Shown here piece by piece: positions 1 through 64,000 of a stretch of 64,000 nucleotides of DNA. The notes beneath the pieces are model-generated. The model did no database searches and had not been told where the DNA came from. It saw only the letters and a program-made list of their open reading frames with translations. Origin of the DNA: Chiloscyllium plagiosum (taxonomy: Eukaryota); NCBI RefSeq assembly GCF_004010195.1, contig NC_057725.1, forward strand, positions 50,236,143 to 50,300,142. Direction: 5' to 3'. Both the position numbers and the translations under genes were made by a program. Numbering within the stretch: the first letter of the stretch is position 1; the number at the start of each line of letters is the position of its first letter.

Positions 1-550
1 ACACACATACACACACACTTTCTCACACTCACAACCCCACAACCCAGACAGACAGACACAGACAGACAGACAAAGACCCACATGCACACATATATTTTGT
101 GTGGTGAATTTGTACTTGCAGAGTTACATTGTACTTTGCTCAAAAACTGCATGAATTTATGTAAAACTCTGTTATTTCACTTTTTAGATTAGAATCAATC
201 TAAACATCGGGTCATAGACAGAGAACACAGGGGGCTAACACCTTCAACATATTGTCTGGCTATCACCATTGTTAACAGCTAACCCGAGAATGCAACTTTT
301 AAAAAAAAGATTTTGTGATTTACACATGAAAGAAGTGAAACTATCACTGTATTCTAACAGATGAAAGGCTTAACAGACAATCAATTTTTCAATGTATAAT
401 TTCAGTTACATCACACTGCAAATTTTTGCTATAAATTCTGTGCTAGGATTGAGCCCTCCACAATCACCTGATGAAGGAGCGTCGCTCCAAAAGCTAGTGT
501 GCTTCTAATTAAACCTGTTGGACTATAACCTGGTGTTGTGTGATTTTTAA
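1..550 (+). mobile_element. PLE-type 3' terminal repeat (family B) with (CA)n/(CAGA)n and a decayed hammerhead at 465-499
   Basis: Near-identical to 5690-6260 and 26650-26813. Motif CTGATGA-A-GGAGC-gtc-GCTCC-aAAA-GCTA, with G12>A. Confidence 0.7.
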
Positions 551-620
551 AAATAATTGTTAAATATCTTAGTAATCTATTAGACTCAATATAAATATAT
601 TCTCATATAGACATACTCAC

Positions 621-748
621 ATGAACATTATCAGTGGGATGACTGGCTCTGTGAATATAAGCTCAGAAAAGGAATTGGACATCAAGTCGTAGAGCATGAG
701 TGTGAACTGTATTGTCAGCACAAGGCTGTAGTTTGACGTCTGCAGCAT
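621..748 (-). CDS. TMEM138: TMEM138 first coding exon (ciliary membrane protein; gene continues left of the window)
   Basis: Manual translation gives [42 protein letters not shown](I), matching the recalled N-terminus of vertebrate TMEM138 ([11 protein letters not shown]...). There are 128 coding nt, then a GTGAGT donor at 620-615. The acceptor ttccag gives a full exon of 621-809. Not in the ORF track. Confidence 0.95.
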
Positions 749-1769
749 TCCCCAGAGAAGTCAGTTAATCAGTGTTACAGCAATGTGAGGACATGGTCTG
801 TTCAATTATCTGGAATACAAAGATACATTTCAACATCAGAATTTAAGACAGCACACATAAAATAGCACTATGAGAATCTATGCATCATAACGATTCCCAT
901 CCTCTTCCACACATTATAATGGAAGATTACTGAGGATTGCATCTGGAAAGATAGATATATTGTGCCTCAATCATCACAGCCCAAATGTTATCCTATTACA
1001 GGTCAGCTAACTTAATATACGTGCAAGTCTTTAGTTTGTATCTTGTGATGTCTTTATCCACTAAGACATTATGCAGTCTACATGATCCAATTCCACACTG
1101 AACTGTAAAGATATCTAATAAGGATGTGTATTCAAGTCAAACTCAAGAAGAGGTCAACTTAGTTCACTGGTTATGATTATAATTTCAACCTTGCTACATC
1201 AATCAATCACCTATCTAATTAGAATCCCTATTCCTGGATCCTAACAAAGTACTATATAAAATCCACACCCTCAAAGCAGCTGTTGCTTTTTGGTTCTTTC
1301 TTTCAAAAACTGTATACAGAAGTTATACCACTATTAAGGCTTGACAGGGAGTTCAGAAGGTAACACTAGAATGGCTCCAGGGATATAGAATACAGCAGTT
1401 ACATGCCCAGTATGTGGAAGCTGAAGTTACCCTTCCTGGAGGAAAGAAGGCTAAAAAAAATTTTGATGTATGAAGATGAATCTTGAAACATTTTGATCAA
1501 GCAGTGTGCTGTTGCTTGGCCACGACCCCCCCATGTCGCATCTGAGTGACATGCATCAAGTGGGTGTTGACTTGGGGCATTCACAGAGAAACCCCAGGCC
1601 TGTCGGTGCTTGGCCACACCTCCCACCCCCCACATCCATTTGAATGATACGCATCAAGTGGGTGTCAACTTTGGTTAACTGTTTGCTCACCAAACAACCT
1701 TGTTAATGAGAAAAAAAACTTTGGAGCTTTGCGGTTTTTGGATGTTCGGATAAAGGATCTTCTACCTGA

Positions 1770-3230: not shown

Positions 3231-4945
3231 TCTGATGTGTGCAGCTTAACGTGGATAAATGAGGTTAGTCATTTTGGTCAGGATAATGGAAAGGCAAATT
3301 ATCTAAATGGAGAGAAATTCCAGTATGCTTCAGTGCATAGGGATCTGGATGTCCTCGCGCATGAATTGCAGACTACTCGTTTTTATTGTAGGAGCATAAC
3401 CTCCATTATTTCTGATGCTTCTGCTAATTAAAGGCAAGTATCCCAGTAGCTTTGTTATCCACCTTAACTACCCATCCAACTACCTTCAGGAATCTTAGAC
3501 AAGCACTCCCAAGGCCCACTGTTCTTCCACATTTCTCACTAACTAACCATTTATTGTGCATTATCTTGCCTTGTTCGCCTTCCCTGAATACATCACCTCA
3601 TACTTCACCAAGGAGAACTCAATTTTCCATTGTTGTGACCACCTAAATAGTCTATTGATATCTTCTTACAGTATACAGCTTCATCACCATTTACACACCC
3701 AAATTTTGTATCTTTGCAAACTTAACTATACACCCCCCATTTAAATTCTAGTTATTCCCATATGCCATAAAAATCAAGGGAGCTAGTACTGAGCCCTGTG
3801 GAACTCAACTGGAAAGGTCCTTACAGCTATTAAGACACAGAAACGTTACCATTTGCTTCCATCCTCCCTGAATGCAACTTGGCCTTGGATCCAGTTGATG
3901 TTGACTGGTGATCATTCTGCATGCAAGATCTTTTCAAAGCTTTGCCAAAATCCATAAAGACTACATTAATTGCATAATTCCATCAAACTTAGTTATCTCT
4001 TCAGAAAAATTCAATATCAAGCTTTCAACAAATCTGTAACTATCTTTGATTAACAGATGTATTTTTAAATGAAGATTAATTTTGTCCCTCAGAATATTTC
4101 CTCAATAATTTTCCTACCAGTATGGTTAACCCGACTGTAATTACTCAGTTCACTTCATCCCTATGGTTCTCCTAAAAATGGTGCATTAGCTGTTTTCTGA
4201 TCATCTGGAATCACACCTACAATTGGAACATTACGGTCAGTGCCTCTGTTTTTTTACCCCTTCATCAGGCTTCACGTAGGCCTGGGGATTTAGGTGCAAC
4301 TCCAGGCTAACAATAATGTGCGTATCTCTTAAATGCTTTCAAAAGATGCGCAATAAACCTTCATGCCATTGTACAATACCCACATCCAGTACATACTAAA
4401 AGCTTGTCATGTGCACTGGTCAAGGAAAGACTTGTGAACAATAGCTAATTATGAAGTTGAAAAAGTTAGAAGAATCTTAATAATCTCAAATTAAATATTC
4501 TTAAAGCAAAACAATGATCAAATCAAGCAGGCCATTGAAAAATATTTTTAAAGGTAGAATACCAGTCAGAGAGGGACTTGTGACATAGTTGATACAAACT
4601 GGCTTTTATTTCAGGCCTTTGGCCTGAAAGTTCAGGTTCAAATCTCACTTGCCCTGGAGATGTGTTTAACAGATTGATTAAAATATTTCCAATTCAGAGA
4701 GGGTAACAACCAATAATAATTAATGCTCTAGTTAGCCAACACCTAAAATGTTGATCACGAAGAGGGAAAAAGACCTTTGATTGGTGGTGAAGAGTCACAT
4801 AAGTGTTTAAACGTTAACTTTGCTTTTCTCTCCACAGAGAGACCTGCAAAGTTTCTTCAGCAGTTACTGGTTTGTTTTGATTTAAAATTTTCAGTTCCCT
4901 CGGTAACTTGATTAACGAAGTCGACGCAGGTGAGAGGATGTTTAC

Positions 4946-5690: not shown

Positions 5691-6260
5691 TCACTCCCAT
5701 ATGCACCCTATTTACACTCACATATACGTTCTCTCTCTCTCTCTCTCACACAGACACTCACAACTCCCCACCCCAAACACACACATACGTTTGTGGGGTG
5801 AATTTGTACTGGCAGAGTTACATCGTACTTTGCTCAAAAACTGCATGAATCCAAGAAGACTCTGTTAACTCATTTTTTAGATTAGAATTAGTCTAAACAG
5901 TATGGCACAGACAACAGCACATAAGGGGCTAACACCAATTGTTAAAGTTAACCTGAGAATGTAACCTTTAAAAAACATTTTGTGATGTTATATATGAAAG
6001 AAGTGAAACTAACATGGTCATTCTAACTGATGAGAGACTTAAACAATCAAGGTATTTTTCAATGTATAATTTCAGTTACATCACACTGTAAACTTTTGCT
6101 ATAAATTCTGTGTCTTAAAATTGTGTACTCCACAACCACCTGACGGAGGAGCAGTGCTCTGAAAGCTCGTGCTTCCAATTAAACCTGTTGGACGATAACC
6201 TGGTGTTGTGTAATTTTTAACTTTGTACACCCCAGTTCAACACCGGCATCTCCAAATCAG
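5690..6260 (+). mobile_element. PLE-type 3' terminal repeat (family B) with hammerhead variant at 6137-6171
   Basis: Paralog of 1-550. Motif cac-CTGACGG-A-GGAGC-agt-GCTCT-GAAA-GCTC-gtg. Confidence 0.7.
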
Positions 6261-6880: not shown

Positions 6881-7254
6881 AAGTAGCCATCCTACAGAAG
6901 TTGTCACACAAATCAATGCAAATGTTATTTTAATTAAATTTTAACTTTCATAGTTTCTACATGCTGTGAAATTATTTGAAATTGAAATGACTCTGTTAAA
7001 AAGTTGGTTTGCTTACTTTACAACTTCCCCAACACTGATCAAGAAATTGTCTGCACAAATACAAAAATATAAAGTCCAGTGTTTGAAATATGAAACAAAA
7101 GCAGCAAGTGATGGAAATACTCAGTTGGACTGGCAGTATCTTGAAGTGAGAAACAGATTTCAGGGAAAAGTACTTATAAAAGGATACAACTGAAACATCT
7201 CTAACCTGTGTACATTTATATGTCAGGCATCAAATGTATGATTTTTAATTGCCA

Positions 7255-7822
7255 TTTTTAATATTCTGCATCCGTTGTACACAATGTGGTCTCCTCTACA
7301 GTGGGGAGACAGGATGCCAACTTGCAGATTGTTTCAGAGAACATTTCTGGAACACCTGCACTGACCAACTCCACTGCCTGTGGCTGAACACTTTAACACC
7401 CCTTCCCACTCTGCCAAGGACATGCAGGTCCTCCATTGCCAAACCCTAACCACCTGACGGCTGGAGGAAGAACGTCTCATCTTCCACCTTGGACCCTCCA
7501 GCCACATGGGATCAATGTGGATTTCACCAGTTTCTCTATTTCCCCTCTCCCCATCTTATCCCAGTCCCAACCTTCCAACTCGGCACCGCCCTCTTGAATA
7601 GTCCTACCTGTCCATTTTCCTTCCCACATATCTGCTCTAGCCTCCTCTCTGACTTATCATTTTCACCCCTACCTTCACGTACCTATCACATTCCTAGCTA
7701 TCTTCCCCCAGCCCCACTCCCTCCTATTTGTCTCTCAGCCCTGTTGGCCCACAAGCCTAATTTCAGATGAAGGGCTTATGCCTGAAACGTTGATTCTCCT
7801 GTTCCTCAGATACTGCCTGACC
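7255..7822 (+). mobile_element. Penelope-like element 3' fragment (GIY-YIG endonuclease plus family A terminal repeat)
   Basis: CIRCTQCGLLYSGETGCQLADCFREH (GIY-YIG-like), EEERLIFHLG; ends in a decayed hammerhead at about 7762-7795. Confidence 0.85.
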
Positions 7823-13489: not shown

Positions 13490-13627
13490 ATCATTCTTGA
13501 TGAAGGGCTTTTGCCCGGAACATCGATTTTCCTGCTCCTTGAATGCTGCCTGAACTGCTGTGCTTTTTCCAGCACCACTCTAATCTAGACTCTGATTTCC
13601 AGCATCTGCAGTCCTCACTTTTGCCTA
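13490..13627 (+). mobile_element. PLE family A solo terminal unit (decayed hammerhead)
   Basis: ttgatgaagggcttttgcccggaacatcg...ccagcatctgcagtcctcacttt. Confidence 0.75.
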
Positions 13628-13849
13628 TGAAATTAATTAAGATCGTTCCTAACATGAGGGACACAGAATTCTCAGGTAAGGACAGGATCAAGCTCAGATT
13701 CACAATTACTGTATACAGGTACTTGGTTCAAACTCACATGCATTTGCATGATGTTAGGACTGGAGGGGACACTGGCACCAATAAAACTCCACTTCAGTAA
13801 AAGTTAATGTCATTAGTCAACCAAAGCAAACCAACACAGTCTAAAGATT

Positions 13850-14039
13850 GATTTGGAGATGCCGGTGTTGGACTAGGATGTTCAAAGTTCAAAATCACAC
13901 AATACCAGGCTATAGTCCAACAGGTTTAATTAGAAGCACACTAGCTTTTGGAGCCTGATGAAGGAGCAGTGCTCCGAAAGCTAGCGTGCTTCCAATTGAA
14001 CCTGTTGGACTATAACCTGATGTTGTGTGATTTTTAACT
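13850..14039. mobile_element. Palindromic family B unit with hammerhead and 13-bp TSD
   Basis: Inverted arms at 13891-13954 and 13971-14035; TSD cagtctaaagatt at 13837-13849 and 14040-14052. Confidence 0.85.
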
Positions 14040-14644
14040 CAGTCTAAAGATTTTGAGCATCAAAGGGTACTACTGATTAGAGAACAGAGAGATTTGGTTT
14101 AATGTACAAGTGTTACTTACAAAGCGTAAATTAGGTAAATTAACACAATGAATAAAAAGACATCAAAAGTTCCAACTTCAATTAGGTTTTCATTGAATGG
14201 GGAAAAAAGTCACTGTCTAATTCCCTATCTACAAAACAAACATAATCTTCTCATTCCTCAGTTTGAAGATGCAATTGGTTCCAAAATAAGCATTTTTAGT
14301 GAAACAAAAGAAATTATTTTTAAAAATTGAATTTGTGGTATTATTAACTTCAGAACTTGAATAACTGTTCATGAATTGATTAATTCAATCACCCAAAGAT
14401 AAACTTACACATGGAAAGCAGCAGCAATAACTGTATCTGAAGAAAAAAAAACTATTAAAGACAAGGACAAATGTATACAGGAATTGAAAGCAATTAGCTA
14501 TGCCTGGCAAAAGGAGGAGTGGAGTCTAAAACCAACAAAACTGCTTTGACATCTGCTTGATAAACTGAATGCTTTATGTCTGATTGCCCTGCAGAAGAAT
14601 TTAATCACAGGAAAGTTTTCTTTAAACAGACAGTTAAGGTCAAA

Positions 14645-14960: not shown

Positions 14961-15975
14961 CTTGTAACAAAGAAGCTACTTCTGAGAAGGCGGCAGGCTG
15001 CAGACTTGCAGTAATTTAGATAAAAGGGCTTTAAAAGAATCATCAATATATCTCATCACAGATCTTAAAGACAAAAATCTGGATAAGAATCAAACACCAG
15101 AACCCCCCACTTAGCAGAACAACACTGGACTAAGATTGAATCGTGGGCACTTCCAGAGATAAGATACTGTTGAAAGAAAAATGGCCAAGTCCCACCAAGC
15201 CAAACTGGGTTTTGAGGCTTACTTGAGGGGTATTATTTTAGTTGCTATATGCAATAAAATTTAAATTATTGTTTCAGTATTTGACTGTCTATAAGATTTA
15301 AGTAGCCGAATTAAAGGTAACTTGTGGTGATTCACTCGCAACATTATGTAACACTAAAAAATGGAAATTGCTAAAGAAAAAGAGGAGGTCTGGCAACATC
15401 TGTGGAGAGTGGAGTCCAGTGACCATTCTTTAGAACCATTTAAAAGGTGAACTGATGCTGCCAGGCCTGTTGAGTTTCTCCAGCAATTTCTGCTTTTGTG
15501 TATTTCAGATCTCCAGCATCTGCAATATTTTGTTTTATAATACTATATTTGTAATATTGTAAATATATATGAAATACCTGTGAAATGTAACAAGTTATGT
15601 AGGAAATGCACAGCCATCTGTACAACAAATGTAAGAGATATGAATGACCAACTAATTTTTGAGTCTCTTTCTTGAAGCAGGAAGGTTCACAAACTCCAGA
15701 AATAGGCTCAATTTTGAACAAAATTGTGCAATGTTTAATATCCTCCTGAACAAGATTTTGCTTTGTGTAACATGTAGCACACTTCCATCAATGCAGAGTT
15801 CCTCAGCGTCACATGCTTTCATATACATGAAAGACAACAGTGCTATTGACTCAACCAAACTGGCAATTGGACAGTGTTATAAATTGATAATAATTACGTA
15901 TATGCCCATATGTTATACGTAGTGGAGCTTATTCAGAAATTGTTCCAACGCTACAGATATTAAGAATTCTCTGAG

Positions 15976-16313: not shown

Positions 16314-16999
16314 CTGTGGAAATAAAAGCATTGTCAACCCTTGGGTCAATGAAAACTTAGAGAAGGAAATCATGAACAAAAATTACAATGATCACCCTCA
16401 TTAAGTATTAATTTTATTGTTAATGACCTGCCAATTTTCTTCCCATTTAAGACAAACAAGATCATTTATTTACAATTGCTGCAGAAGAAATCATCTTAAC
16501 CTGAGAATACTAACACTCCCATAATATTCTGAAACAAAAAAATTCTATTCTATAGGCACATTATATATAACTTGTTCCCAACATCTCATGAAAAAGATTG
16601 TCAGAAGATTGACTAAATATGAGTAAATGTGAAGGGCATCACAGAAAGCAAGTACTTCATTTCACATGCAAGTTGATTACAGATTTAAAAATTCATTCAT
16701 GAGATATTAGTGTCACTGGTCTGACCAAATTGCCCAGAAAGCAGTTAAGAGTCAACCACATTGCTGTGGGCCTGAAGTTTCATGTATGCCAAACAAGGTA
16801 AGGATGGCGGTAAGGTAAGGATTTTCTTCCTGAAAGGATATTAGTGCAGCAGGATTTTTACAACAATTGACAGCAGTTACATGGTTACCATAAAACTAGC
16901 TTCAATTTTGTTTTCTGAATTCAAATTTGACCATCTGTCATGGTGGGTTTCAAACTCACATCCCAAGAACATTAGCTTGGGGTTCTGAATTACTAAGAG

Positions 17000-17230
17000 A
17001 AAGACAGGACTGCAGATGCTCGAGATCAGAGTCAAAAAGTATGGTGCTGAAAAAGCACAGCCGGTCAGGCAGCATCTGAGGAACAGGAGAGTCTACGTTT
17101 CGAGCATAAGTTCTTCATCAGGATTGTTTTGAAGAAGGGTCACTGGACCTGAAATGTTAACTCTGATTTTTGCTGCCAGACGTGTTGAGATTTTCCAGCA
17201 ATTTCTATTTTTGTTTCAGATTTCCAGTAT
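17000..17230. mobile_element. Back-to-back PLE terminal units (family A minus, family D plus), each with a hammerhead motif
   Basis: Minus strand 17092-17125: CTGATGA-A-GAAC-ttat-GCTC-GAAA-CGTA. Plus strand 17126-17162: tTGAAGA-A-GGGTC-actg-GACCT-GAAA-TGTT-aac. Confidence 0.7.
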
Positions 17231-17231
17231 T

Positions 17232-17560
17232 GGGCGGCACAGTGGCTCAGTGGTTAGCACTGCTGCCTCACAGCACCATGGACCCGGGTTCAATTCCAGC
17301 CTCGGGCAACTGTCTGTAGGGAGTTTGCACATTCTCCCCGTGTCTGCGTGGGTTTCCTCTGGGTGCTCTGGTTTCTTCTCACAATCGAGAGACGTGCAGG
17401 TCAGGTGAATTGGCCGTGCTAAATTGCCCATAGTGTTATGTGCATTAATTAGGGATAGGGCTAGGGTTTAGGTCTGGAAGGATTACTCTTCAGAGAGTTG
17501 GTGTGGACTTGTTGAGCTGAATGGCCTGTTTCCATACTGTACGGAATCTAATCTAATCTG
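17232..17560 (+). mobile_element. tRNA-derived V-SINE (HE1-like), full length
   Basis: A box tggctcagtgg, B box ggttcaattcc, V domain, (TCTAA)n tail. Confidence 0.9.
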
Positions 17561-18512: not shown

Positions 18513-19014
18513 TTCATCCGAAATCCAATTAGCTGCACAGAAAAAAGAGAAAACTGATTAGAAACATGGCATGACTACAGTAAGGAAATTATGCTTGACA
18601 TAACCTAATATCAGCTGATGTAAGGAGAGAAAAATTACATTAAAAATAAAAAATTACTCAGTCTTCATCAGAAACTTGAGTCTACTCATATTTATATGTT
18701 CTACTGTTAACAAAATTACAGTACAATGGATCAACTGGCGCATTCATGTTTCTATATACTAAAAGAAAAAGTCAGTCCAGCTGCAGCCATTTGAAAATGA
18801 CAGTCCCACATGGCTATACAGTTCACTATTCCACTGATTAAATACTTCCATATCTCAATCAAGGCTGTTCCCAGAGATAAACAGCAATAAATATCGACTT
18901 CGACTAGAGGACCAACTTGATGAAAGATGCAGTTTGGCCTTTCCTGAAACTTGGCTGGAAGTTGGAGTCCTCTTTAAAACTGAAATTCTTTGAGTACTTC
19001 AGATTAATTTTGTG

Positions 19015-19450
19015 TAGCCATATATGAACAAATCAACGGCACACCCATGGGCTCACCCATCTCTAGACTCATAGCAGAAGCGGTAATGCAAAGATTAGAA
19101 CAAACAGTCTTACCGCAAATTCACCCAAACTCTGGGTCAGATATGTGGATGACATCTTTGTAATCATTAGAAACACAGAAATAGAGAACACACACCAGAT
19201 CATCAACGCCACACTCACAGGAATCCGATTCACTAGAGAGGAAGAAAAGGACAACCAACTCCCATTCCTCGACGTGATGGTACAGAGAACACCGAACGGA
19301 GAATTCACTACAAAGATATACAGGAAAGCCACACCCACAGACCAAGTCCTGAACTACGAAAACAACCATCCCAACACACACAAAAGAAGTTGCATCAAAA
19401 CACTGTTCAAAAGGGCCACAACACACTGCAGTACACCAGAACTGCAAAAA
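19015..19450 (+). mobile_element. Penelope-like element reverse transcriptase fragment (runs into gap)
   Basis: GTPMGSPIS, WVRYVDDIFVI, FTREEEKDNQLPFLDV, YRKAT; the frame looks largely intact. Confidence 0.92.
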
Positions 19451-20001: not shown

Positions 20002-20004
20002 ACC

Positions 20005-20135
20005 CGAGCCTGAAGAAGGGCCTGTGCCCGAAACGTCGAATCTCCTGTTCCCTGGATGCTGCCTGACCTGCTGTGCTGTTCCAGCAATAAAGTTTCAACT
20101 TTGATCTCCAGCATCTGCAGACCTCAGTTTCTACC
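20005..20135 (+). mobile_element. PLE family A terminal unit with intact hammerhead core (20010-20041)
   Basis: CTGAAGA-A-GGGC-ctgt-GCCC-GAAA-CGTC-gaat. Confidence 0.8.
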
Positions 20136-22619: not shown

Positions 22620-25498
22620 AAGTCCTTCAGCCTACCAGCACCACATGCTCCCTTGCCAGAAGCACATGAACGTGGATGTAACTACTGAAAATAAGCAGGC
22701 ATTTAGGTAAAACAACCCATTTCACAGTCAACCTCGTAAATGTACAATCTCTGGAAAACAAGATGGATGAAATCAGATCACGGCTCAGCTTCCAGCGTGA
22801 ACTGTGCGACTTCTGCACACTCTAATTCACAGAAACCTAGCTTAACCCATCCCATTCCCGACTGCACACTTCAGGCTGATGGTTTTTCTATCCATCGCAT
22901 GGACTGTACAGCGTCCTCGGGAAGACAAAAGGGTGGGGGTTTTGCTTTTTAATCAACAACTTATGGTGCACGGACATTGCAACCCTGGGCAGCCATTGCT
23001 CCCCAAATCTTGAATTCCTCATCGTCAAATGCCGCCCCTTCTATCTACCATGGGAATTTACTGCTGCTATACTAGCGGCTGTGTACATACTGTCACAAGC
23101 AAAGGTTGAGGAAGCTCTGGATGTGCTGTACTCCACCACTAACACCCTGGTTCTGGATTAGAGTGGTGCTGGAAAAGCACAGCAGTTCAGGCAGCATCCG
23201 ATGAGCAGGAAAATCGATGTTTCGGGCAAAAGCCCTTCATCAGGAATAGAATCACCCTGGAGATGGAACACCCCAAGGGCCTGTTTATTGTGACTGACGA
23301 CTTCAATTAGGCCAATCTAAGGAAGATGTTGCCCCAAGTATCACCAGAATATTAACTGCCCCACTAGGGGCCCAAACATTTTAGACCACTGCTCCATCCC
23401 CTGCCCTATCCCCCGCCCTCATTTAGGGAACTCCAACTACAACGCCGTGTTTCTTCTCCCGGCTTACAGGCAAAAACTCAAGCAGGAGACCCCCCCTCAC
23501 GGATACAGGTCCACTGCTGGTTGGTGGAGGCAGAGGATTGATTTCTGTGCTGTCTGGAATTGGCTGATTGGGCCATGTTCAAATAGTCCGCAGGTACCTT
23601 GGATGAATATACCACCACTATCACAGGCTTTATCAGCAAGTGTGTGGAGGACTGCATACCGAGGAAGTCAACCCGGGTGTTCCCCAACATGAAACCCTGG
23701 ATGAACCAGGACATACAGAACCTGCGAAAAACCAGACATGAGGCCTTCAGATCAGAAGCCCCACTCAAATATAAGGAATCTGAGTATGACCTTCGCAGAG
23801 CCAAAGACAGCCAAGGACCAATGCCGATCCAGTCTAGAGCCCCAGATAGACACCCGGCGACTATGGCAAGGTCTGAATGACATCACAGGTTCTAAAAAGA
23901 GACTGTGCAAGATAGCAGATGATGACACAGATCGTCTCAACGCCTTCTATGCTCACTTTGAGCAGAATTTCGGTGGAGAGGTTACACCTATTCCGACAAG
24001 TCCTGACGAACCTATCCCAACAGACACTACATTAGAGGTCAGATCAGTTTTCCTTCTTGTGAATCCAAGGAAAGCGATGGGACCAGACGAATGACCAGGC
24101 CGTGCACTCAGCATGCGCAGATCAACAGGCAGAGATCTTCTCAAACATCTTCAACCTCTCCATGCAGCAGGCCACTGTTTCAAGAGGGCCAACATCATCC
24201 CCGTGCCAAAGAAGACTCATGCAGCATGTCTCAATGACTACCGCCCAGAGGCCCTAACTCCGGTGGTCATGAAGTGCTTTGAAAGGCTGGTCGTGGTCTC
24301 CCCACTACACTTGACCCACTCCAATTTGCCCATTGGACCAAGAGATCCATGTCAGATGCCATATCACTTGCCCTTCGCTCCTCCCGAGAACATCTTGACA
24401 CCAAGAACAGCTACGTAAGAATCCTACTCATTGACTATAGTTCAGCCTTCGACAGTATTATCACCTTGAGACCGATTACTAAACTTGGTGATCTCAGATT
24501 AAGCCCCACTCTCTGCAACTCAGTTTCCCGACCCACAGGCCAAAATCAGTGAAGACTGGGGACAATATTTCATCCTCACTAACACAACACGAGCCCACCA
24601 GGGATGCGTACTCAGCCCCCTCCTGTACTCACTGTATACCCACGACTGCTTTGTCAAATACCAGACTAATGCCATTTTCAAATTCACTGATGACACCGCC
24701 ATAATCAGTTGAATCTCAGATGGCGACAAAACAGACTACAGTGGGGAGATGAAAGACCTGGAAAAATGGTGCACTGAGAACCTAGCTCTCATGCTGACAA
24801 AACCAAGGAACTCATTATTGACTTTCGGTGAGATGTTACTCATGCCCCCTACACATTAACAGCAGAGAGGTGGAACAAGTGGAGTGTGTCAAGCTCCTGG
24901 GAGTGGTCATCAACAACAAGCTTTCTTGCTCTCTTCATCTGGATGCACTGGTAAAGGCCCAACAACATCTCTTCTTCCTCAGGCAGCTGAGAAAATTTGG
25001 CATTGCGAATACCCTTGCCAACTTTTATAGGTGCGCCATAGACAGTACTCTGTCTGGATGTATCAATACCTAGAACCCTAACTGTACCATTCAAGATCAG
25101 TGACGGTTATAGAAAGTGATGAACTTGGCCTGGACAATCACAAAGGCCAACCTCCCATCTGTAGAATCCATCTAACAGGCCTACTGTCCAAGAAAGGCTG
25201 CCAGCATTCTCAAAGATCCATCCCACCCTGGCAATGCTTTTCTACAACCTCTGGCATCGAGGAGAAAGTACAGAAGCCTGAACACACGCACCAGCCGGTT
25301 TTGAAACAGTTTCTACCCTACTGTTGTTAGAATACTGAATGGACTCTCAAACTCACAGCATTTGCCTGTACCTGTGTTTTTTTTTTGTTTTTGACGCTGT
25401 TTACCTATTATTTACTTATCTATGCTACTTAACTATGTGATCTGCTTATACGGCTTGCAAGACAAAGCTTTGGTACATGTGACAATAAATTCAATTCA
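22620..25498 (+). mobile_element. Rex1/Babar-type LINE ORF (endonuclease plus RT), decayed
   Basis: [85 protein letters not shown]; tail aataaattcaattcaa. Confidence 0.92.
23151..23252 (-). mobile_element. About 100-bp family A hammerhead unit inserted into the Rex1 element
   Basis: TSD caccctgg at 23143-23150 and 23253-23260; motif CTGATGA-A-GGGC-tttt-GCCC-GAAA-CATC. Confidence 0.85.
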
Positions 25499-34761: not shown

Positions 34762-34891
34762 GGAGAAAGTGAGGACTGCAGATGCCGGAGATCAGAGTTG
34801 AGAGTGTGCTGCTGGAAAAGCACAGCAGGTCAGGCCGCATCCAAGGAGCAGGAGAATCAATGTTTAGGGCAAGAGCCCTTCATCAGGAATC
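34762..34891 (-). mobile_element. Family A solo terminal unit with TSD
   Basis: Flanked by ctattg(t/a)aatat at 34750-34761 and 34892-34903; hammerhead G12 is mutated. Confidence 0.8.
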
Positions 34892-39200: not shown

Positions 39201-39595
39201 CTGAAAATGTGTTGCTGGAAAAGCGCAGCAGGTCAGGCAGCATCCAAGGAGCAGAAGAATTGATGTTTCGGGCATGAGCCCTTCTTCAGGAATGAGGAAA
39301 GTGTGTCCAGCAGGCTAAGATAAAAGGTGGGGAGGAGGGACTTGGGGGAGGGGCGTTGGAAATGTAATAGGTGGAAGGAGGTAAAGGTGAAGGTGATAGG
39401 CCGGAGTGGGGGTGGGGGCGGAGAGGTCAGGAAGAAGATTGCAGATTAGGAAGGCGGTGCTGAGTTCGATGGATTTGACTGAGACAAGGTGGGGGGAGGG
39501 GAAATGAGGAAACTGGAGAAATCTGAGTTCATCCCTTGTAGTTGGAGGGTTCCGAGGCGGAAGATGAGGCGCTCTTCTTCCAACCGTCCAGGATT
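39201..39595 (-). mobile_element. Penelope 3' fragment inserted in the Gypsy integrase
   Basis: TSD agaccttgaag at 39190-39200 and 39596-39606; RLEEERLIFRLGTLQ; hammerhead CTGAAGA-A-GGGC-tcat-GCCC-GAAA-CATC at about 39259-39293. Confidence 0.88.
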
Positions 39596-41017: not shown

Positions 41018-44000
41018 GGTCTGGCATTGGCATTCCTGAAGCTGTTTCACCTCTGTCTCCAGGTCTGGGAAGATTTGATTTAATCTGGTATAGAGTCTTC
41101 TCCCCATTAGCAACTCTGCTAGAGCTATCTCTGTAGTTGTTTGAGGGGTGGTCCTGTAATCAAATAGGAACTGGGACAGTTTGATATCTAGTGATGCTAT
41201 CATTTAAAGTCTACCTTCAAAGTTTGGACTGCTCTCTCTGCCAGATGGATGATATGGAGCTGTCCTTATATTTCGAATACCATTCAACTTTAGGAAATAC
41301 TCAAATTCTCTGCTGATAAAGGATGGCCTGTTATCTGTGTCCAACACTTCCAGGAGTCTGTGCATTGCAAAAGATGCAGTTTTTCTATTGTCATCTCTGT
41401 GTTTGACAAATGAACTCTATGCATGTCCAACCACTTTGAGTGGGCATCCACAATAACTAAGAACATTAAGCCCATGAAAGGACCTACATTATTGACATGT
41501 AACTGAGATAAGCGTTTACCCAGGCATTCCCATGAATGTGGTACCTGCTGGTGGTAATTTTTATCTTTGTTGACACTCTGGGCACTGCCACACCAATGCG
41601 GCTATATCGTCATCCAATCCTAGCCAACAGACATGACATCTTGCCAACATCTTCATTTTTGAAATCCTGGAGTTCAGCCAGTATCTGGCGGTGACCTTTG
41701 CTTGGGACAATCACTTTTGCTCCCCATAATAACATGCCATCCTCTACTGTAATCTGGTCTCTCTGGATCCAAAAGCCTTTCACTTCAGTGTGTGACAGCT
41801 TCATTACCACTGTTTCAGTTTTGCCAGAGCTAGATCTTTCTGCATCCAAAGTCTGATATTGTCAGCTGTGACTGGACGTGTGTCCAGAAAATTTAAAACC
41901 ATGACAGACTTTGCCAGTGGTGATACAACAGTAGTGTATCTGCCAATGGGAGATGGCTCAATGCTTTCAAGTTTACTACTTGGCCTCCCAGACAGTATTC
42001 CACCTTGTAATTATACACACCTAAAATTAGAGCCCACTGCTGAATTTGGTCTGAAGCTAAGAGTGACACCCACCTTGTCCTTTTTAAGTACTGTACTCCC
42101 AGAAGGAATATGTGGTCCATTATTATTACAAATCTACATCCATAAAGGAATTGGTGGAACTTCCTACTCCAAATACAACCACCAAACTTTCCTTTTCTAT
42201 CTGGGCATATTTACGCTCTGCAGTAGCCAAAGTTCTGGATGCATACACTATTGGATGATCCTGTCCATTGAGTCATGTATGAGCTATTACAGGGAGGCAT
42301 CGCATGTAAATACCACATCTAATTGGGATCACAGTATGCCAACATCTTAGAGGATGATCATTTCCAAGGCTGACCCTTTTTAAAGAGTTGATGCAAAGGT
42401 GCCAGGATGGATGCCAGGTTATGTATGAACTTTCTGTAATAGTTCATCAGCCCAAAGAAGGAGCCAAGCTCTGGTACAAACGTGGAAGTTGGGGCATCTT
42501 TGATCACCCTCACTTTATCTTCCAATGGTGTGACCTGGTCCTGTCAACTCTGTAACCCAAGTAGGTCACCTGGGGAGCCCGGATCACATGTTTTTCCCTT
42601 CTAAGGAATATACCCAGATGGGCAAAACATCTAAGGACTATGTTCAAATTCTCTAAATGTTCCTTCTTGATCTTCCTTGTTATTAGCATGTCATCTAATA
42701 GTGACCTAGGTAAACCTTGTAAAATGTTTTTCATTGTCCACCGAAAAATTGCAGAGGCTGATAGTACCCCAAATGGTGGTCTTGTATTTTGATACAAACC
42801 CTTATGGCTATTAATTGTAGCATACTTCAGGGAATCCTCATCTAACTGCAAATGCAAGTATGTATGGCTCATAGTTGAAAAGTGTAGTGCTGGAAAAGCA
42901 AAGCAGGTCAGGCAACATCCAAGGAGCAGGAGAATTTCAGGCATAAGGGTTTTATCAGGAATGTTGGGGGGAAAAGGTGCTGAAAGTTAAATAGGAAGGT
43001 AGGGTTGGGGTTGGGGGAAGGTAGCTGGGAAGGTGATAGGTGGATGCAGGCGGGGGGGTGATTATGATAGGTCAATGGGGGAGGGTGGAGCAGATAGGTG
43101 GCAAGGAAGATGGACAGATGGGACAGGTCAAGAGGACGGGCCAAGTTGGAGGATTGGATCTGGGATGAGGTGCAGGGAAGGGAGATTTGGAAACGAGTGA
43201 AGTTGATGTTGATGCCATGTGGTTGAAGGTTCCCAAGGCAGAAGATGAGGCAATCTTCCTCCAGTCATTGGATGGCTTCGATTTGGTGGTGGAGGAAGCC
43301 CAGGACTTGCATGTCCTTGATGGAGCGGTAGGGGAAATTGAAGTGTCAGCCACAGGGCAGGGGGTTCTTTGGTAAATCTGTCCCAAAGATTTTCCCTGAA
43401 ACCTTCTGCAGGTTGTCATTCTGTCTTCCCAGTGTGGAGGAGACCACATCAAGAGCAACGGACACAGTAGATAAGCTGTTTGGACATGCAGGAAAATCTC
43501 TGCCGGATGTGAAAGGATCCTTTGGGGCCTTGGACATAGGTGAGGGGGAAGGTGTGTGCATGGTTTTAAACCTCTTGTGGTTGTAAGGGAAGGTGAGTTG
43601 ATGGTGGGTGTGGACCTAACAAGGGAGTTCCAGAGGGAATGGTCTGTGGAATGCAAATATGTCCTGCTTCATGAAGGACATCCCCAATGCCAGCTTTGCA
43701 TATAAATCCTCTATGCAAGGGAGTGGGTATTTGTCGAGCTGTGAAAAGTAGTTTGTTTGTTTACAATCCCCACAAAGGTGACCTGATCCATTGGTTAATC
43801 AATCAGTGCTGCCCATTCTGCAAACTGAACTGGTTTGAAGATTCTGTCACTTTCCAGACTTCTGATTTCTGCCTCTATTTGTGCCAGTAAGGGTTGGTCT
43901 TACAGAATTTTGGAATGGCTTCTTGGTCAATATGCATGATGGCCTTGGCTCCTTCGATAATCCCTAGACCTTTCCAACAAGATTCCATATATTTAATTAA

Positions 44001-54335: not shown

Positions 54336-57300
54336 TCATTCTCTCTTAATGTCAGCCATGCGTCTTTTTAATTTTGTTCATTCACATTCAGTTATATTGC
54401 TAGTGTCACTCTGGATACCAACTGTACATACTTCTGTTTTCTGTGTCTCTTATTCACAGTTCTTTAATATGCCATGGCCACTTTTACTTCCATCGTAGTT
54501 ATTGTAATCAACCTGGTCAGACATATGTGACCCCTCTGGAACAGACTGAAACTGAAATCAGACTTGGGAATGCTGCTGCTGTGGCTCTCTTGCCCTCTTT
54601 GGAATTAACTGATGACCAGTCCTCTCTTAGCTCCTCTTCATGGGATATAATGGGGATAACCTAAACAACCACCAAAGGAGAATTATTGTTTCATGTAACA
54701 TTTGGAAAGGAATGATGGTAAAACAATGGTGATTAAAGGGTGCTAGCGAGATGTAACTAGCAATGAGATATAGAATCAATCTGGATTATATCAAAAGATG
54801 GAGTCTACTGAAATGGGTATACTGTAGACCACCAAATAGTCGCAATTTCAGCAAATCTACAAGGTGAGTTATGAGACCTTAATTTAGACATGGAATTTGT
54901 ATGTACAGCACGGCAACAGACCATTTGGTCCAACTCGTCCATGCCGACTAGAAATCCTAATCTAGTCCCATTTGCCAGTACTTGGCCCATATCCATCTTT
55001 AAACCCTTCCTGTAGGTTCTGTTTGTGAAGGAATTTAGTCAGACCATACTGCAGTTGAGGTCTCCATAATCCTCTTATAATAAAGAACTGAGACACCAGA
55101 ATATTAGACCTTGACTGAATTATGAACAGCTTATTCCCCACTTATCAGACTTTGAATGGACCTCTAATATTGATCTCTGCAACTTTTTTTTGGCAGCTGT
55201 AACATTGAATCTTGCATTCTGCTCTGATGCACTTGTACAATCTGCCTGTAAAGCATGTATGACAACCCTTTCCACCATACCTTGGCACACAGGTTCACAT
55301 GACAGTAAAATTTAGAATTGTTATTTTTCTTCTATCTTTTAATATTGAGTTAACTGGTTATGGAAAACCTTTTCACTTGTGGATTGGTCTTAAAACTGAG
55401 CTGTGTAATAAGTTACTAATAAATCTGCAGTGGGACATGAAAAGAAGTTCCTTTACTCGAGACCACTTAGAATGCAGAATCACAGGAAGTGATTATGTTA
55501 CACCTCCATGAGATAGCACACTGGAAATCTGGTTCTGCAATTCTGGAGTCATTACAAAAAGGTTAGAGTGCCTATAAGTACACAATTCCCCAGTTTACTG
55601 TCCTTTTTTTTTCTGGCACATGTTGATTTAAACATACAGACCTGGTTTCTGTATTTAACTAGTGACTTTGTTTGTCTATTACAGAAATGGATGTGAGGTA
55701 CAGGTAAAGATTGTCAATCTTTGACATATGACTTTGTTTTAAAACTCTCACCCCCTCAAAACTCTAATCCCACATACTTATTTTGTCTGTGTGTAAGGGT
55801 ATGGGTGGATGGAAAGATTTGGGGAAGGCATCTGAATCTAAAATTAAAAACCAGAAATAACTAAGTTCAGTAGGTGTGCCAGCATGAGTGGAGAGAAAGC
55901 AGAGTTGATATTACAAGTCCAGTAATGTTCCAGTTCTGAATAAGGGTTGTAGGACTTGTTGCCTCTGATTTCTGTCTCCAGATGCTGTCAGATCTATTCA
56001 GTTTCTCCAGCAATTTGTTTTTAAGTTCAGATATCTAGCATCAGTAGCTTTTTATTTTTGTCTGGACACTCTGCCTGACTTTCCATTTCAAACCTACAGC
56101 CTCCAACAACTGTGGGGGAAATAAACTGGCTTTGTTTTAATTTGGTTAAAACTATAGGGTGAAGGACAGTACCTTCCTATCGATTTGGCTTCTAACGAAA
56201 GTAGCTGTTTGGTTACTCGAAGTCCAATCAGATAGTTGCTTGTAAGCAAAACGTCTTTGTCATTTGAGCTGAGGAATGGTGACCAGTTGGCTACTTTTCG
56301 CCACTTAAATCTAGTTGTATAGCCTGTTGGCAGTCCTTTTCCATATCAATGTTGCTTGTTCCAGTAACACTTGCAATGAATATCAGGTAACTACTTTTGA
56401 TTTTTAAGAAAAATGGAGCACTCCTTTTCACAATCCTGAGTTTCTTTTTAAACCGTTCTTATCCCATTTCAGTCCACAATTAACAATCCAGAAAATAAAA
56501 CAGTCTTTACAATTTAAGACCAATAGTTTGGATTATGCATATTCAGTTTGTATATAGTGTAGCATTCTTTTAATTAGGACAACTTCCGTTCCAATGGTTC
56601 ATGTAGTATAATCACCAATAGTCATGAATCTTATCTTGTCATTTCTCTTGGCTTCTCTATTCTTTATCCTTGAACTGTTACCTTTTTCATCCATCTATGC
56701 TTGCAAGATGTAACTGCAGAGAACCTTAATTTTCATACATCTCCATCTGCCCTTTCTTCCGGGGGGGGCTTCAAAAAGCCTGAAACTTTGTCAACTAGCT
56801 TGGAATTTTACAGTTGTAATGATGATTCTGAAAAACAACTTGACTTCCCTTCCAACTTCCTTGATACAAGTTTTATGCTTTCATAATGAACATCAACCAC
56901 AACAAGGCTTCTGTTCAAATGTGTCATGCACTATCTTGGTGGTGATGTTTTGGTGGCTTCCTCAAGGTGCGTGTGAATGATTAACACAGTTAAGTGAGGA
57001 ATCACTCATGAGGTGAACCTATTCCAGAGAAGATGGCAAAGAACTTTGTCTTCAAGTTTTTTTGAAAATCATTTCAGTAATAAGTGACTAGGGAACAGTG
57101 AAGGAAGCATTTTGGATAAGACTTTCAAATTAAATTGTCTTTTGTGTTGCTGCTTTTTTTTATCAGCATGTGATGAGCAGACCAGTTGGAGTTTTGCTGC
57201 TTCTGTACAAATGTTGCCTCCACTTGGAATGCAGGCTTCAAATAGAACCTGATAAGACTTGGTCTCGATTTTATGTATTGTTTGAAGTGCTCAAATGAGA

Positions 57301-59859: not shown

Positions 59860-62800
59860 ATGATGAATAGCTGAAGCTTTTCGGATGCAGTTGGAGAAGC
59901 AGTTGAGATTTGTATAGTGTTGCTGTTATGCTGCATGGAATTGACTCCTCAACTATGGTCTTTCCCTAGAGCAATGATTTGAAGGAACTTTAGTATTAGT
60001 TTGTGAAGTCTAAAAGTAGACAGGATCTAAATTGAATAAGAGGGTGGAATAGACCTTCTCCTGTATCTGCTTTACACTTCTGATTTTAGCCAGTCTGTTC
60101 CAAGGAAGGACTGTAAGTAGACCACTTAAATTAAACGTTGTATAATACTACTTTCATTTGAAGCCAGAAACTCCATTAGCATGATTAATGCAATTAGGAA
60201 ACTGTTGACCCATTTTTAATATTGGGGGAAGAGGGAGAAAGAGTTATAGGCTTAAAATGTTGACCTGTTGTCATTTGAAACCTTTCTGTTGTTTTCCAAA
60301 TTTGAGACTATTTTGTTTTTTTACTTTTGTGGAACACTTGCTTGCACTTACTCCAGAGTAACCCCTCTTAAGGAAAAGAACTGATCATGTAGAATCTAAC
60401 TTGTGGAAAGAACTGCATTTTGTCACATGCTAGGACACATGTAACCTTTTTGGCTTTTAAATTTTTGCACCACAAAGCTGAGCATTTTACTTTCATTTTG
60501 AGATTAGGCTTGAATCCAGCTTCAATTATTGGAGGCTTCTCATGATGCTTATGTCTTTTGATTTGAAATTTGAGGAATCTCATATGTCCAAAACTGGCAT
60601 ATGATTACAGTTCAAAAAAAGTTTGCACAAGATTGGTACTTGAGACTTAATGATGAATGATATTCTGCCAGAATTTAAGTTTTTACTCCTTCCAGCAAAA
60701 GCTTTCTTGTATATTTGCACTTTTTCAGATTTATTTTCTTGTTTGTTGATCGTTGGCCTGTTCTTTTTTAAAAATGTACTCTTTCTGAAGTGTAGAATCT
60801 TTTGTGAGAAGGAAAAAGAAAATTGATAAATTTATTTGCTGTTTTTTAAATGTAATCACCTAAGATTCTAAGATGAAAAATTCTTAAATGTATTTAACAC
60901 TTGTAGATACTGTCAACCTTTAAATATATGACTTGGATTTGGTTGATTTTTTTTTGCTCGCCTGAAGTGTAATTTTTAAGTGGACTAGGACACTACAATT
61001 CAGCTAGTTTAAAGGTTACCAGTTCCAAATTTAGAAGTACAATTGTACTGTTTTGAATATTCAGCATTTCAAATTGTAATTTCATTTTCCATTCTGGGAA
61101 AGGGAATTTGTGCAGATATTTAAATTGGCTTAAATTGAAACTGCAGGGGCTAATCCATATTGCTATTGTTTCCTCTGAAGAAAATTGGTCTTGCATCCTG
61201 ACTCTGCAGGACTTTTTTTTTTGAAAAAAAAGTTTTATTACCAGTTAAATGATTGTGTGCATATTATACAGCAGTCAATCAAGTCCAACAATAACTCTGA
61301 AGTCAGAACTCTTTTTATCTAAGCTATGTGGATAACAGGAAAACTATTGACCAGTACATCATAGGAAAATCCCTGGTTTTAAAAATACTGCTAGGGTGTC
61401 TTACAGACATGATTTCAGTTAAATATGCCTTCTGTAAGACTGCACCTCATAATGGGTGCAGAATTGAGGAAGATAAAAGTCACCAAGGAGCAAAGCTCAA
61501 CTCATTAGCTGCTTCTACAGAGATTAATTAGTAATGCTGTCCAGTAATAGCATGAACATCAACTTAATTGAAGAGGTAATGAGAAAGTTAATAGCCTTAA
61601 ATGTTGTCCTTTTAAAAAATTTAAACTAAAATGTAATTTTGAATTATAGAACACATTTGCTGCACACTAAAAATAGTATGGCAAGAGAAGATAAGAATCT
61701 GTATAAACCAACGCCAAGTGATAACATTCACAGCTAATTAATTTCACAACGTTTAACTCTGACCTTGGAACAAAACTCTGTCAAACTAAATTCTTTCCTG
61801 AATTATTGTCCTTCGCTATTATCTGTCTAGTTCAGAACATGCAGTGCTTTCATTAACTTTTGTGTTTGTGACAGTAATGCCTTTGTAAGCCTGTGTATAA
61901 AAATAGTCTGTTTTTGATAGCTACTCTGTCGTACTGGCTAGGGCTCTTGAAAGAAGTGATTTCCTACTCTGGGGTTTAATAGAATCCAATTAGCTTGATT
62001 TATAGGTATCCGTGTTATGTTGTAACAGTGATGCTATTAGTAAATGAAGGGAATGATTTAAAATTGAACTAATCTGTCTGTAAGACTTGGTTTTTTTTTT
62101 CAAAAAATTCCAAACCACCAAAGAGTATGATTTCTGGAACGAACCATGAGAGAGGCTTACAGATTGAGTTTATAAGGGATTTCCTGGGCCATCTCAAATC
62201 TGTACTTTAACAGTAGGTTGCATAACTTTTTTTCCTTTAAACTGTAGTGGGGTGTTAGTTTTTACTTGTAAACTTTTAAACCTGTTCCCAATTTTAGAAA
62301 CTGCAATCTGTTGCGTTTTTTTTTTTGTTAAAGCTTTCCTTGGCCTCCACTGCATTCAAGTTTCTTCCTGTTACTGCATGCATACTTATCAAGTCTTCAA
62401 ATTATTTTACTTCATCTCTAAACCCCTCGTTGCTGATCTGACTATGCATAAACTCCAACTATGAACATAAGTGAAGCATTTGCTTTTCCTAGAGAATGTT
62501 TGTTTGATCGTGGTTTTTTTTATATAACTACCTGTATTTTTCTTTTGGAGTTGCACTTTTTTTTCAAAAACAAATTCTGTTTAACGCTCTGTGGGGTATT
62601 TTGTTGTCACATTACTGTTCATGCTATTGAGTGAAAGAATGTAGCTGTCTTCCAACAGAAGATAAAGATTTGGAAGTAGGAAAACTTTGAATTTGGTGGA
62701 AAGAGGTAACCATTTGTGCAAGGAAGTGGAAGACTTGATTTGTTCCTCTAAATACATTTCTGTGCTAAGTCTTTAATAAATATAAGCTTGAATATAAACT
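59860..62800 (+). other. CYB561A3: Probable CYB561A3 3' UTR (about 2.9 kb)
   Basis: U-rich and free of recognisable repeats, with AATAAA at 62775-62780. Confidence 0.5.
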
Positions 62801-63299
62801 TCACTAGCACAAAGTTAAGTAACTTAAAGCTTTTCAACTGAAAACATTGCAATCATAGTTTAAAGTAGGCACAAATTATGTCAAATCTGAGGTGCAGGAT
62901 TTCAGCTTTGGTTGTAAATGCTGAGACACTATTAGTAAAATAGCAAGAGGTTTTGTAATCCCTGTCCTAAACTGACTCTATCAATCGTTTCAACTTCACC
63001 AGATGCGTATCTCTTACATCTCTTTAATATTTAAATTTTCTCACCTAAACCACCAGGAATACAGAACAGGTATGTTGTGAAGTGTACTAAAATTGAATAT
63101 AACTAGGGATCATGTCAAACTTGTTTACCATTGTTTGCTGAAACAAATGACCACAAACATGTCAGAATTTCACTGTTTAATATATGCACTCATGTAAATA
63201 TTTTCTTTGTGCTGTTGATGCAGTTGCATGTGACAATGTGGATCTTGGTAGATGTTACAAAGCAAACCAGTAAGTCACTGTCAACTACATTTTAAAGCT

Positions 63300-63935
63300 C
63301 AAAGTTTGTGCGAAGATTTGTAGCTCGGGTGCTCGTTGTTGTGGTTCTGTTCGCCGAGCTGGAAGTTTTTGTTGCAAACGTTTCGTCCCCTGGCTAGGCG
63401 ACATCAGTGCTTGGGAGCCTCCTACGAAGCGCTTCTTTGATGTTTCCTCCGGTGTTTATAGTGGTCTGTCCCTGCCGCTTCCGGTTGTCAGTTTCAGCTG
63501 TGACTGCACAAAACACTATATAGGACAAACAGGAAGACCGCTAACTATCCGCATACATGAACATCAACTAGCCACGAAACGACACGACCAGCTATCCTTA
63601 GTAGCCACACATGCAGACAACAAGCAACATGAATTCGACTGGGACAACACTACTATCATAGGGCAAGCCAGACAGAGAACAGCCAGGGAATTCCTAGAGG
63701 CATGGCATTCATCCACAAACTCCATCAACAAACACATCGACCTGGACCCAATATACCAACCACTACAGCGGACAGCTGAAACTGACAACCGGAAGCGGCA
63801 GGGACAGAACCACTATAAATACCGGAGGAAACATCAAAGAAGCGCTTGGCAGGAGGCTCCCAAGCACTGATGTCGCCTAGCAAGGGGACGAAACGTTTGC
63901 AACAAAGTTCCAGCTCGGCGAACAGAACCACATCA
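63300..63935 (+). mobile_element. 5'-truncated Penelope element with inverted terminal repeat and 13-bp TSD (family C)
   Basis: GIY-YIG HYIGQTGRPLTIRIHEH...REFLEAWHS..SINKH. Inverted copy at about 63335-63501 of 63774-63935. TSD acattttaaagct at 63287-63299 and 63936-63948. Confidence 0.92.
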
Positions 63936-64000
63936 ACATTTTAAAGCTTTGATTGTCACAATTACTAATGTAATCCTAATTAATCAACAACAGATTAAGA

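Follow-up and report, generated by a model that had tools for sequence, protein, structure and literature searches.

Minimal hammerhead motifs scattered through a Chiloscyllium plagiosum locus and their probable place in the ends of Penelope-like elements

A 64,000-nt stretch of the Chiloscyllium plagiosum genome (NCBI RefSeq assembly GCF_004010195.1, contig NC_057725.1, positions 50,236,143 to 50,300,142; hereafter the window, meaning the whole stretch) is scattered with short motifs resembling hammerhead ribozymes, which raises the question of what carries them and whether the copies still cleave. An earlier note on this DNA had described more than ten minimal hammerheads in four families, A to D, with covarying stems, and had ascribed them to Penelope-like elements (PLEs). 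Such hammerheads in the pseudo-LTRs (pLTRs; LTR, long terminal repeat) of metazoan PLEs were described in 2014 by Cervera and de la Pena (PMC4209133), and in fishes they are reported from Xena, Poseidon and Neptune elements (PMC4209133). Dispersed minimal hammerhead motifs are confirmed in the window at the level of sequence, and we consider it very probable that they are minimal type-I hammerheads in the pLTR ends of four PLE families, present as 5′-truncated and often fold-back insertions that are likely decaying without selection and would mostly not cleave.

Searches with family hidden Markov models (HMMs) found about 28 pLTR ends in the window, approximately 10 of family A, 6 of B, 2 of C and 10 of D. 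A strict descriptor (CTGANGA, an optional extra base, stem II ≥3 bp, GAAA, two bases, TH and stem I ≥2 bp) matched three sites exactly and ten when one mismatch was allowed; in 20 dinucleotide shuffles the corresponding means were 0.1 and 0.45. All 17 positions cited in the earlier note bear the motif or a decayed version of it, and the claim of more than ten copies stands for the motif as such, but only two copies, both of family B (C3 at 13955 and 26698) and both inside fold-back insertions, still have core, palindrome and a stem I of 2 bp or more. The copy at 20010 has an intact core, stem II and palindrome but has lost the 5′ arm of stem I, of which 1 bp remains. The family A stem I given as attc/ga(a/t)t exists as a 4-bp subfamily form, the consensus having 2 bp followed by a U-U mismatch, and the copy near 33065 (C3 at 33067) is D-like and decayed but lacks the GGGTC/GACCT stem. 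All four families were found, but the inventory was incomplete: a family A copy at 42958(-), an A- or D-type copy at 25856(+) and a partial B copy at 13942(-) had been overlooked, as had D copies at 4815, 7079-7155, 15352-15541, 26988, 33057(-) and 55838-56063. No Rfam hammerhead family matched the whole window at its gathering threshold, nor positions 13000-28000 up to E=10, which is expected because the motifs lack helix III. MicroRNA-like Rfam matches were rejected, being simply the arms of fold-backs.

The consensuses of A to D were compared with that of a fifth family, E, which is related to C, occurs elsewhere in the genome (11 matches in the 590 kb sampled as described below) and is absent from the window; its loci (L042:517-634, L049:9440-9773 and L118:4650-4763) have a stem II of 6-7 bp. 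The core CUGANGA ... GAAA ... UH is identical in all five, and all five carry a G10.1-C11.1 pair and, as had been proposed, an extra base between positions 9 and 10.1. A palindrome at 15.2-16.2 replaces helix III in four of the five; the reduction of stem III to a palindrome thus holds except for the D consensus, which reads CA through CpG decay, while the D copies at 4815 and 26988 retain CG. When only the core letters were used to anchor the columns, pairing was seen in 37 of 40 stem cells over the five consensuses, against a column-shuffle mean of 21.4; none of 200,000 column shuffles reached 37, and the true matching ranked first of 120 family permutations, which upholds the claimed covariation between families. 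The three cells that do not pair are the U-U in stem I of A, a G-G in stem II of C and the decayed palindrome of D. Stem I arms are mostly family-specific (cross-family pairing of 0-2 bp, except 4 bp for D with A), and the cut triplets are GUC (A and E), CUA (B) and GUU (C). Since A and D are related, as are C and E, the consensuses represent about three independent lineages (A/D, B and C/E). The core, the extra base, the G10.1-C11.1 pair and the palindrome are the same as in the PLE hammerheads described earlier, as is the occurrence of several covarying families per genome, mostly as solo or inverted copies 100-700 bp apart, whereas stem I (2-4 bp) is shorter here and stem II has 4-5 bp in A, B and D (PMC4209133).

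The PLE origin of the motifs is borne out by their position, 3′ of open reading frames (ORFs) for GIY-YIG endonucleases and within pLTRs. Among 20 young family A loci, fetched with the A endonuclease and 98-100% identical to the query, a pattern search placed the hammerhead 158 nt 3′ of the GIY-YIG ORF in 14; one of the other six has it at 145 nt, two have it at the same place with one core change, one meets a B motif first and two are affected by truncation or N. In 12 of 20 family B loci a CA-rich spacer separates the motif from the ORF, the distance being 487-692 nt, and in the other eight no motif occurs in the 900 nt read. Family A encodes a CX4CxxC linker, a GIY-YIG domain (E 2e-4, 22.0 bits; cut-off 22.6) and reverse transcriptase (RT; RVT_1, E 3.3e-8), and family B a 479-amino-acid RT-linker-endonuclease frame with a CX2-5CxxC linker (RVT_1, E 1.3e-8); because of this layout of RT, linker and GIY-YIG, A and B are by motif Neptune-type. 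Family C, in a natural frame of 490 amino acids (locus L129), has RVT_1 (E 1.3e-9) and a GIY-YIG domain missed by Pfam in that frame and read from its motif, and lacks the linker zinc finger; by this Penelope/Poseidon layout it is Poseidon-type. Its RT is just 27% identical to that of B, and of the 19 other loci retrieved by way of the RT remnant at 18990-19450, 18 had a C pLTR match. Family D is probably Neptune-type: an A-like endonuclease C-terminus, the only coding part seen, lies upstream of it at 26245-26457 and in locus L086. Endonuclease remnants also lie directly upstream of the window A copies at 7764, 39289 and 42958.

These arrangements agree with those of endonuclease-bearing PLEs (Neptune, Penelope/Poseidon; Craig et al. 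2021, PMC8557442), in which RT is followed by a C-terminal GIY-YIG domain, the CX2-5CxxC linker is a feature present here in A and B and absent in C, and pLTRs, an inverted 5′-truncated copy and a tail occur as here. The insertion units show 5′ truncation, inverted pLTRs, target-site duplications (TSDs) and an optional tail of about 35-40 nt, and the family C insertion at 63287-63948 is a textbook case of inverted pLTR, endonuclease and pLTR. In two family A copies (L173:4089-4754 and L174:1187-1894), about 21 residues of the GIY-YIG motif are tripled in frame, which may be template slippage or an assembly effect.

The genome (3.56 Gb) contains 92,148 exact-pattern matches for A and 23,571 for B, together at least 115,719, and reversed-pattern controls gave 0; the very high density of hammerhead-bearing repeats foreseen from the window is thus confirmed. 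A sample of 60 fixed-position 10-kb pieces from contigs C1-C39 (590,342 non-N bases, unplaced contigs left out) held 45 motifs passing the strict descriptor, 26 of them also with the palindrome, and 113 of its 172 pLTR matches span the hammerhead. Extrapolation gives about 271,000 strict motifs (95% Poisson interval 198,000-363,000), about 157,000 fully intact ones (102,000-230,000) and 681,000 hammerhead-spanning copies. To call the repeats ribozyme-bearing needs qualification: most copies are decayed, solo or inverted and appear to evolve neutrally. Published motif counts are 4,000 for coelacanth and 9,000 for Xenopus tropicalis (PMC4209133), and those found here are 13-29 times as high, by different search methods. 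In axolotl 126,247 canonical motifs are reported (PMC7229834) in a genome of 28.21 Gb (10.64898/2026.07.22.740005); the exact count of A and B, by different methods, comes near this figure in a genome about eight times smaller. Because methods differ between surveys, a record density has no firm footing.

Judging from their substitutions, the dispersed copies are probably non-working and decaying neutrally. In 70 unbiased A copies, 24 of 696 non-CpG core positions were mismatched (3.4%), equal to the least variable half of the other columns (3.4%), a rough comparison, since differences between subfamilies raise the values of those other columns; mismatch at G12, the general base, which is part of a CpG, was 20%, inside the 11-31% of other CpG sites. 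Family B gave 5 of 229 non-CpG core mismatches and 21% at G12. Within 1 kb, 11 of the 113 sampled copies had a family member on the same strand and 32 had a divergent one, and such divergent partners would form a long duplex instead of a dimer. Inverted arms mostly do not share mutations as a rule: 43 inverted-arm pairs had 9 shared and 171 private rare variants (165 and 34,103 in control pairs). A single-cell RNA run (X19) contained reads on both strands for A (1,516) and C (360), of which 93% and 69%, respectively, continue into unlike sequence, and a further RNA run (X20) had 0 reads. The presence of A and C sequence in RNA, the size of the exact intact A and B population and the near same-strand partners (11/113) would fit many dispersed copies being catalytically active on host pre-mRNA, whether in cis or through dimers formed in trans, and so imposing a host-relevant ribozyme load or having been co-opted. 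We regard this as quite improbable, as core decay equals neutral decay, forward and reverse counts are equal (though this is no orientation test), inactive folds are favoured, and minimal hammerheads are reported to be inactive as monomers and of low activity as dimers (PMC4209133).

The 5′ ends of the insertions bear on the state of their templates. Of 196 pLTR matches, 180 had mappable 5′ ends, 167 of them beyond the cut on the upstream side, 6 no more than 3 nt from it and 7 further down; since 5′ ends are almost never at the cut site, the inserted templates were likely uncleaved in most cases. This agrees with work in vitro on PAc, a Poseidon element of Anolis carolinensis (PMC11167929, Frangieh et al. 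2024), in which hammerhead mutants leave insertion unaffected, cleavage requires protein and uncleaved RNA is the insertion substrate. A modest cluster of 5′ ends just upstream of the core (A 16/100, D 13/35, B 2/29) is, in A and D, what might be expected if the short units were non-autonomous retrozymes or SINE-like (short interspersed) elements spreading through self-cleaved monomer or circular RNA, and many insertions are indeed just about 100-300 nt long with their own TSD; retrozymes are also reported in one chondrichthyan genome (10.64898/2026.07.22.740005). Animal non-LTR retrozymes resemble the present repeats in having type-I hammerheads that act as dimers and a very high copy number (PMC7229834; 10.64898/2026.07.22.740005), whereas they are tandem non-coding repeats giving circular RNA and the motifs here are dispersed ends of coding PLEs (PMC7229834). 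The window holds no tandem array, near same-strand partners are as rare as given above, so that the head-to-tail repeats of retrozymes were not seen, 5′ ends are widely spread away from the cut site, and copies grade continuously into endonuclease and RT remnants; such an origin of the short units is very improbable.

At the other end, the 3′ ends are bimodal. In 123 A, 79 B and 76 C copies, targeted loci included, they cluster at about 50-69 and 95-101 nt after the cut in A, 50-64 and 90-99 nt in B, and 40-44 and 75-85 nt in C. In A, B, C and E a helix of 7-9 bp is predicted to begin 17-18 nt past the cut, with its 3′ strand between the two preferred ends; its arms are GATGCTG/CAGCATC in A, TGTTGGACT/AGTCCAACA in B, AGCTCGG/CCGAGCT in C and AGCTCAG/CTGAGCT in E (pair probabilities 0.86-1.0), C and E differing by one compensatory pair. 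Shuffle p values for a helix this long that starts at positions 15-22 and reaches into the tail, a start window picked after the data were seen, are 0.011 (A), 0.002 (B), 0.003 (C) and 0.007 (E). The helix of family D has 6 bp (p 0.044) and is missing from the family's minimum fold if only the post-cut part is folded. In the B consensus, nucleotides 80-84 after the cut, which belong to the tail, are predicted to base-pair at a probability of about 0.5 with the 3′ arm of stem I of the hammerhead (1-5), a possible switch between tail and ribozyme folds.

Under the proposed mechanism, two hammerheads in tandem transcripts would be joined by the ACGU or AGCU palindrome and by an exchange of stem I strands, probably aided by the element's protein, and cut after NUH (GUC, CUA, GUU). 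The RT-endonuclease would likely bind the stem-loop starting 17-18 nt downstream of the cut, the helix perhaps directing RT initiation, and cDNA synthesis would begin just inside the stem-loop or about 20 nt past it, two start points giving two 3′ ends. RT would copy mostly uncleaved RNA and thus carry the hammerhead into nearly every new copy; CpG decay after insertion would remove G12 and the palindrome, and selection would act on master elements only. In PAc, two RT start sites bound an optional 30-40 bp tail, like the bimodal 3′ ends here, and an AC-rich stem-loop lies downstream of the hammerhead; by eye, the RNA of Fig. S1B has complementary 7-nt arms, beginning 21 nt in, around an inner helix and an AC-rich loop, much as in the helix found here, a spacing taken from the RNA listing text alone, whose register against the cut site may differ (PMC11167929). 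PAc is one Poseidon element in vitro, whereas here the helix recurs in Neptune-type families at fixed spacing in unrelated sequence (PMC11167929). The structure thus resembles one already known for one Poseidon element, and its recurrence in Neptune-type families is what the present comparison would add; the parts of the Penelope and pLTR tail literature consulted, including PMC3846280 and PMC8557442, contain no description of it. A bolder and tentative proposal, which we hold somewhat doubtful, is that Neptune and Poseidon PLEs share a 3′ RNA module (hammerhead, 16-17 nt spacer and fully covarying long-range helix with its 3′ strand in the tail) that sets both RT start sites and maybe gates ribozyme folding, and that this is the densest ribozyme genome reported. 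If that is true, the more than 115,000, perhaps about 157,000, intact motifs amount to a population-scale test of the host cost of ribozyme insertions. For Neptune-type elements the downstream helix provides a candidate RT start signal that is concrete and open to mutation, and it thereby bears on PLE mechanism.

Several results weigh against reading the motifs as PLE hammerheads of this kind. A covariance model from which B was left out recovered 11 copies of A, C and D at E<0.003 and zero B copies, so that this model gives no support for a shared structure. The double-hammerhead fold (A -13.3, B -17.7, C -21.1, E -18.1 kcal/mol) lies 9.7-15.9 kcal/mol above the dimer minimum (A -26.7, B -33.6, C -32.7, E -27.8 kcal/mol), core tertiary contacts being outside the model, and in the monomer minima of A, C and E the core is paired with the palindrome. 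Reads of run X19, a fragmented single-cell library in which RNA ends are lost, show no end pile-up at the motifs. Clade names rest on motifs and not on a reference tree, the longest open frames fetched were mostly N runs, with no element recovered whole and intact, and the downstream region as a whole folds with weak z-scores (-0.4 to -1.7). The unfavoured active fold and the short stem I would suit a non-catalytic protein-binding or promoter signal of the pLTR that merely looks like a hammerhead, as would the dispensability of cleavage for insertion (PMC11167929). We give this very little credence, since every core position is identical in five families that otherwise differ in sequence and the lizard Poseidon hammerhead cleaves, with rescue by C3/G8 mutants (PMC11167929); the motifs remain very probably minimal hammerheads.

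Both C arms in the window lack one GAT of the GATGAT core, and the same deletion in both arms points to probably one template. Core deletion had been listed as a property of family C; this does not hold, as 34 deleted copies stand against 5,211 intact ones genome-wide and the deletion is absent from all 37 motifs read in the 29 closest loci. A core-less C lineage was rejected, as 12 deleted copies share no diagnostic variants and 3 of 10 fetched loci combine a deleted arm with a partner whose core is intact. By these counts the deletion is a recurrent, rare slip.

The families described here are, in our assessment, new members of the known class of PLE minimal hammerheads, remarkable mainly for their number, with the downstream helix as the most useful new lead. 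Sharks are not named in the parts of PMC4209133 consulted or in two of its supplements, and what was seen of the literature on hammerheads and retrotransposons, bamboo shark Penelope and whale shark genomes contains no description of shark PLE hammerheads; families A-E may already be catalogued in Repbase or Dfam. Why PLEs keep a hammerhead is a still-debated question (PMC8557442), to which this genome offers several co-resident families, one of them very young, with more than 100,000 intact copies. Such copy numbers suffice to test cleavage in vivo and selection against intact copies in genes.

Table 1. Hammerhead-related PLE features in the window; C3 and N17 give the positions of these nucleotides.
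Feature	Position	Strand	Details
Family B pLTR end	424..550	+	C3 at 468, N17 at 496; G12 -> A; without tail; 3′ end of an insertion whose start, an inverted B pLTR with RT-thumb remnant, lies left of the window
Family D pLTR end	4786..4890	+	hammerhead heavily decayed
Family B pLTR end, tailed	6094..6260	+	C3 at 6140; A9 -> G
Family D pLTR fragment	7079..7155	-	without hammerhead
Family A GIY-YIG remnant (7215-7594) then pLTR	7215..7822	+	C3 at 7764; U4 -> A
Family A pLTR end, tailed	13493..13621	+	C3 position 13497; C3 and A13 mutated
Family B fold-back insertion	13837..14052	.	13-bp TSD 13837-13849 / 14040-14052
Minus arm of 13837..14052	13849-13954	-	partial, tailed
Plus arm of 13837..14052	13954-14039	+	intact core, C3 at 13955
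Family D fold-back pair	15352..15541	.	decayed
Family A pLTR end, tailed	16997..17126	-	C3 at 17121; stem II mismatch; sense to armadillo-repeat gene intron
Family D pLTR end	17124..17232	+	C3 position 17129 -> T; palindrome decayed; back to back with A copy 16997..17126
Family C (Poseidon-type) RT remnant	18990..19450	+	YVDD; 91% amino acid identity to C ORF over 19124-19450
Family A pLTR end, tailed	20009..20132	+	C3 at 20010; core, stem II, palindrome intact; stem I 5′ arm lost
Family A micro-insertion	23143..23260	-	C3 at 23243; CpG decay broke palindrome; 8-bp flanking repeat 23143-23150 / 23253-23260
Partial A- or D-type pLTR end	25841..25940	+	by family HMM
Family D element	26245..27113	+	GIY-YIG C-terminal remnant 26245-26457, decayed pLTR (C3 near 26988), split by B insertion
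Family B fold-back insertion	26525..26825	.	12-bp TSD 26525-26536 / 26814-26825
Minus arm of 26525..26825		-	C3 at 26613; G12 -> A
Plus arm of 26525..26825		+	tailed; C3 at 26698, N17 at 26726; fully intact
Family D fold-back pair	32925..33172	.	C3 at 33057 (minus) and 33067 (plus); decayed
Family A pLTR end, tailed	34762..34890	-	C3 at 34886; G12 -> T
Family A pLTR end	35896..36020	+	C3 at 35909; stem II broken
Family A pLTR preceded by endonuclease C-terminus (39467-39586)	39199..39586	-	C3 at 39289; palindrome and stem I broken
Family A decayed pLTR preceded by GIY-YIG remnant (43133-43594)	42881..43594	-	C3 at 42958
Family D fold-back pair	55838..56063	.	decayed
Family C insertion	63287..63948	.	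13-bp TSD 63287-63299 / 63936-63948; open GIY-YIG C-terminal frame between arms; same 3 core bases missing in both arms
Inverted pLTR of 63287..63948	63299-63501		tailed; C3 at 63407
Direct pLTR of 63287..63948	63772-63937		untailed; C3 at 63867

Remnants of other elements share the window. A Neptune-type RT remnant at 21123-21428 (-) has 60% identity to the family A RT, and no hammerhead was found adjoining it. LINE-type (long interspersed) RT remnants, repeated inside the window, lie at 8020-9519, 36170-36972 and 52970-53634 and at 2293-2809 and 23321-24418; we take them to be CR1/L2-like. The decayed frames at 37537-38892 and 41290-42986 are presumably LTR-retrotransposon gag/pol-like remnants. 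Pfam searches of five window remnants returned no informative family. A dispersed SINE-like repeat family is present at 14659-14924, 30167-30476, 35551-35876, 6717-6881 and 17242-17559.

Two sets of host exons were also recognized. An armadillo-repeat gene at 15976-18500 (-), which we assume to resemble ARMC7, has three exons, near 18461, near 18000 and at 15976-16356 (Pfam Arm, E 1.4e-5), and both the A copy at 17121 and the D copy at 17129 lie in its last intron, the former in sense and the latter in antisense orientation. Cytochrome b561-family exons lie at 48186-48437 and 58624-58995 (+), the first with a Pfam E of 6e-4, below the cut-off, and the second with no Pfam match; if both form one gene, the D fold-back at 55838-56063 is intronic.

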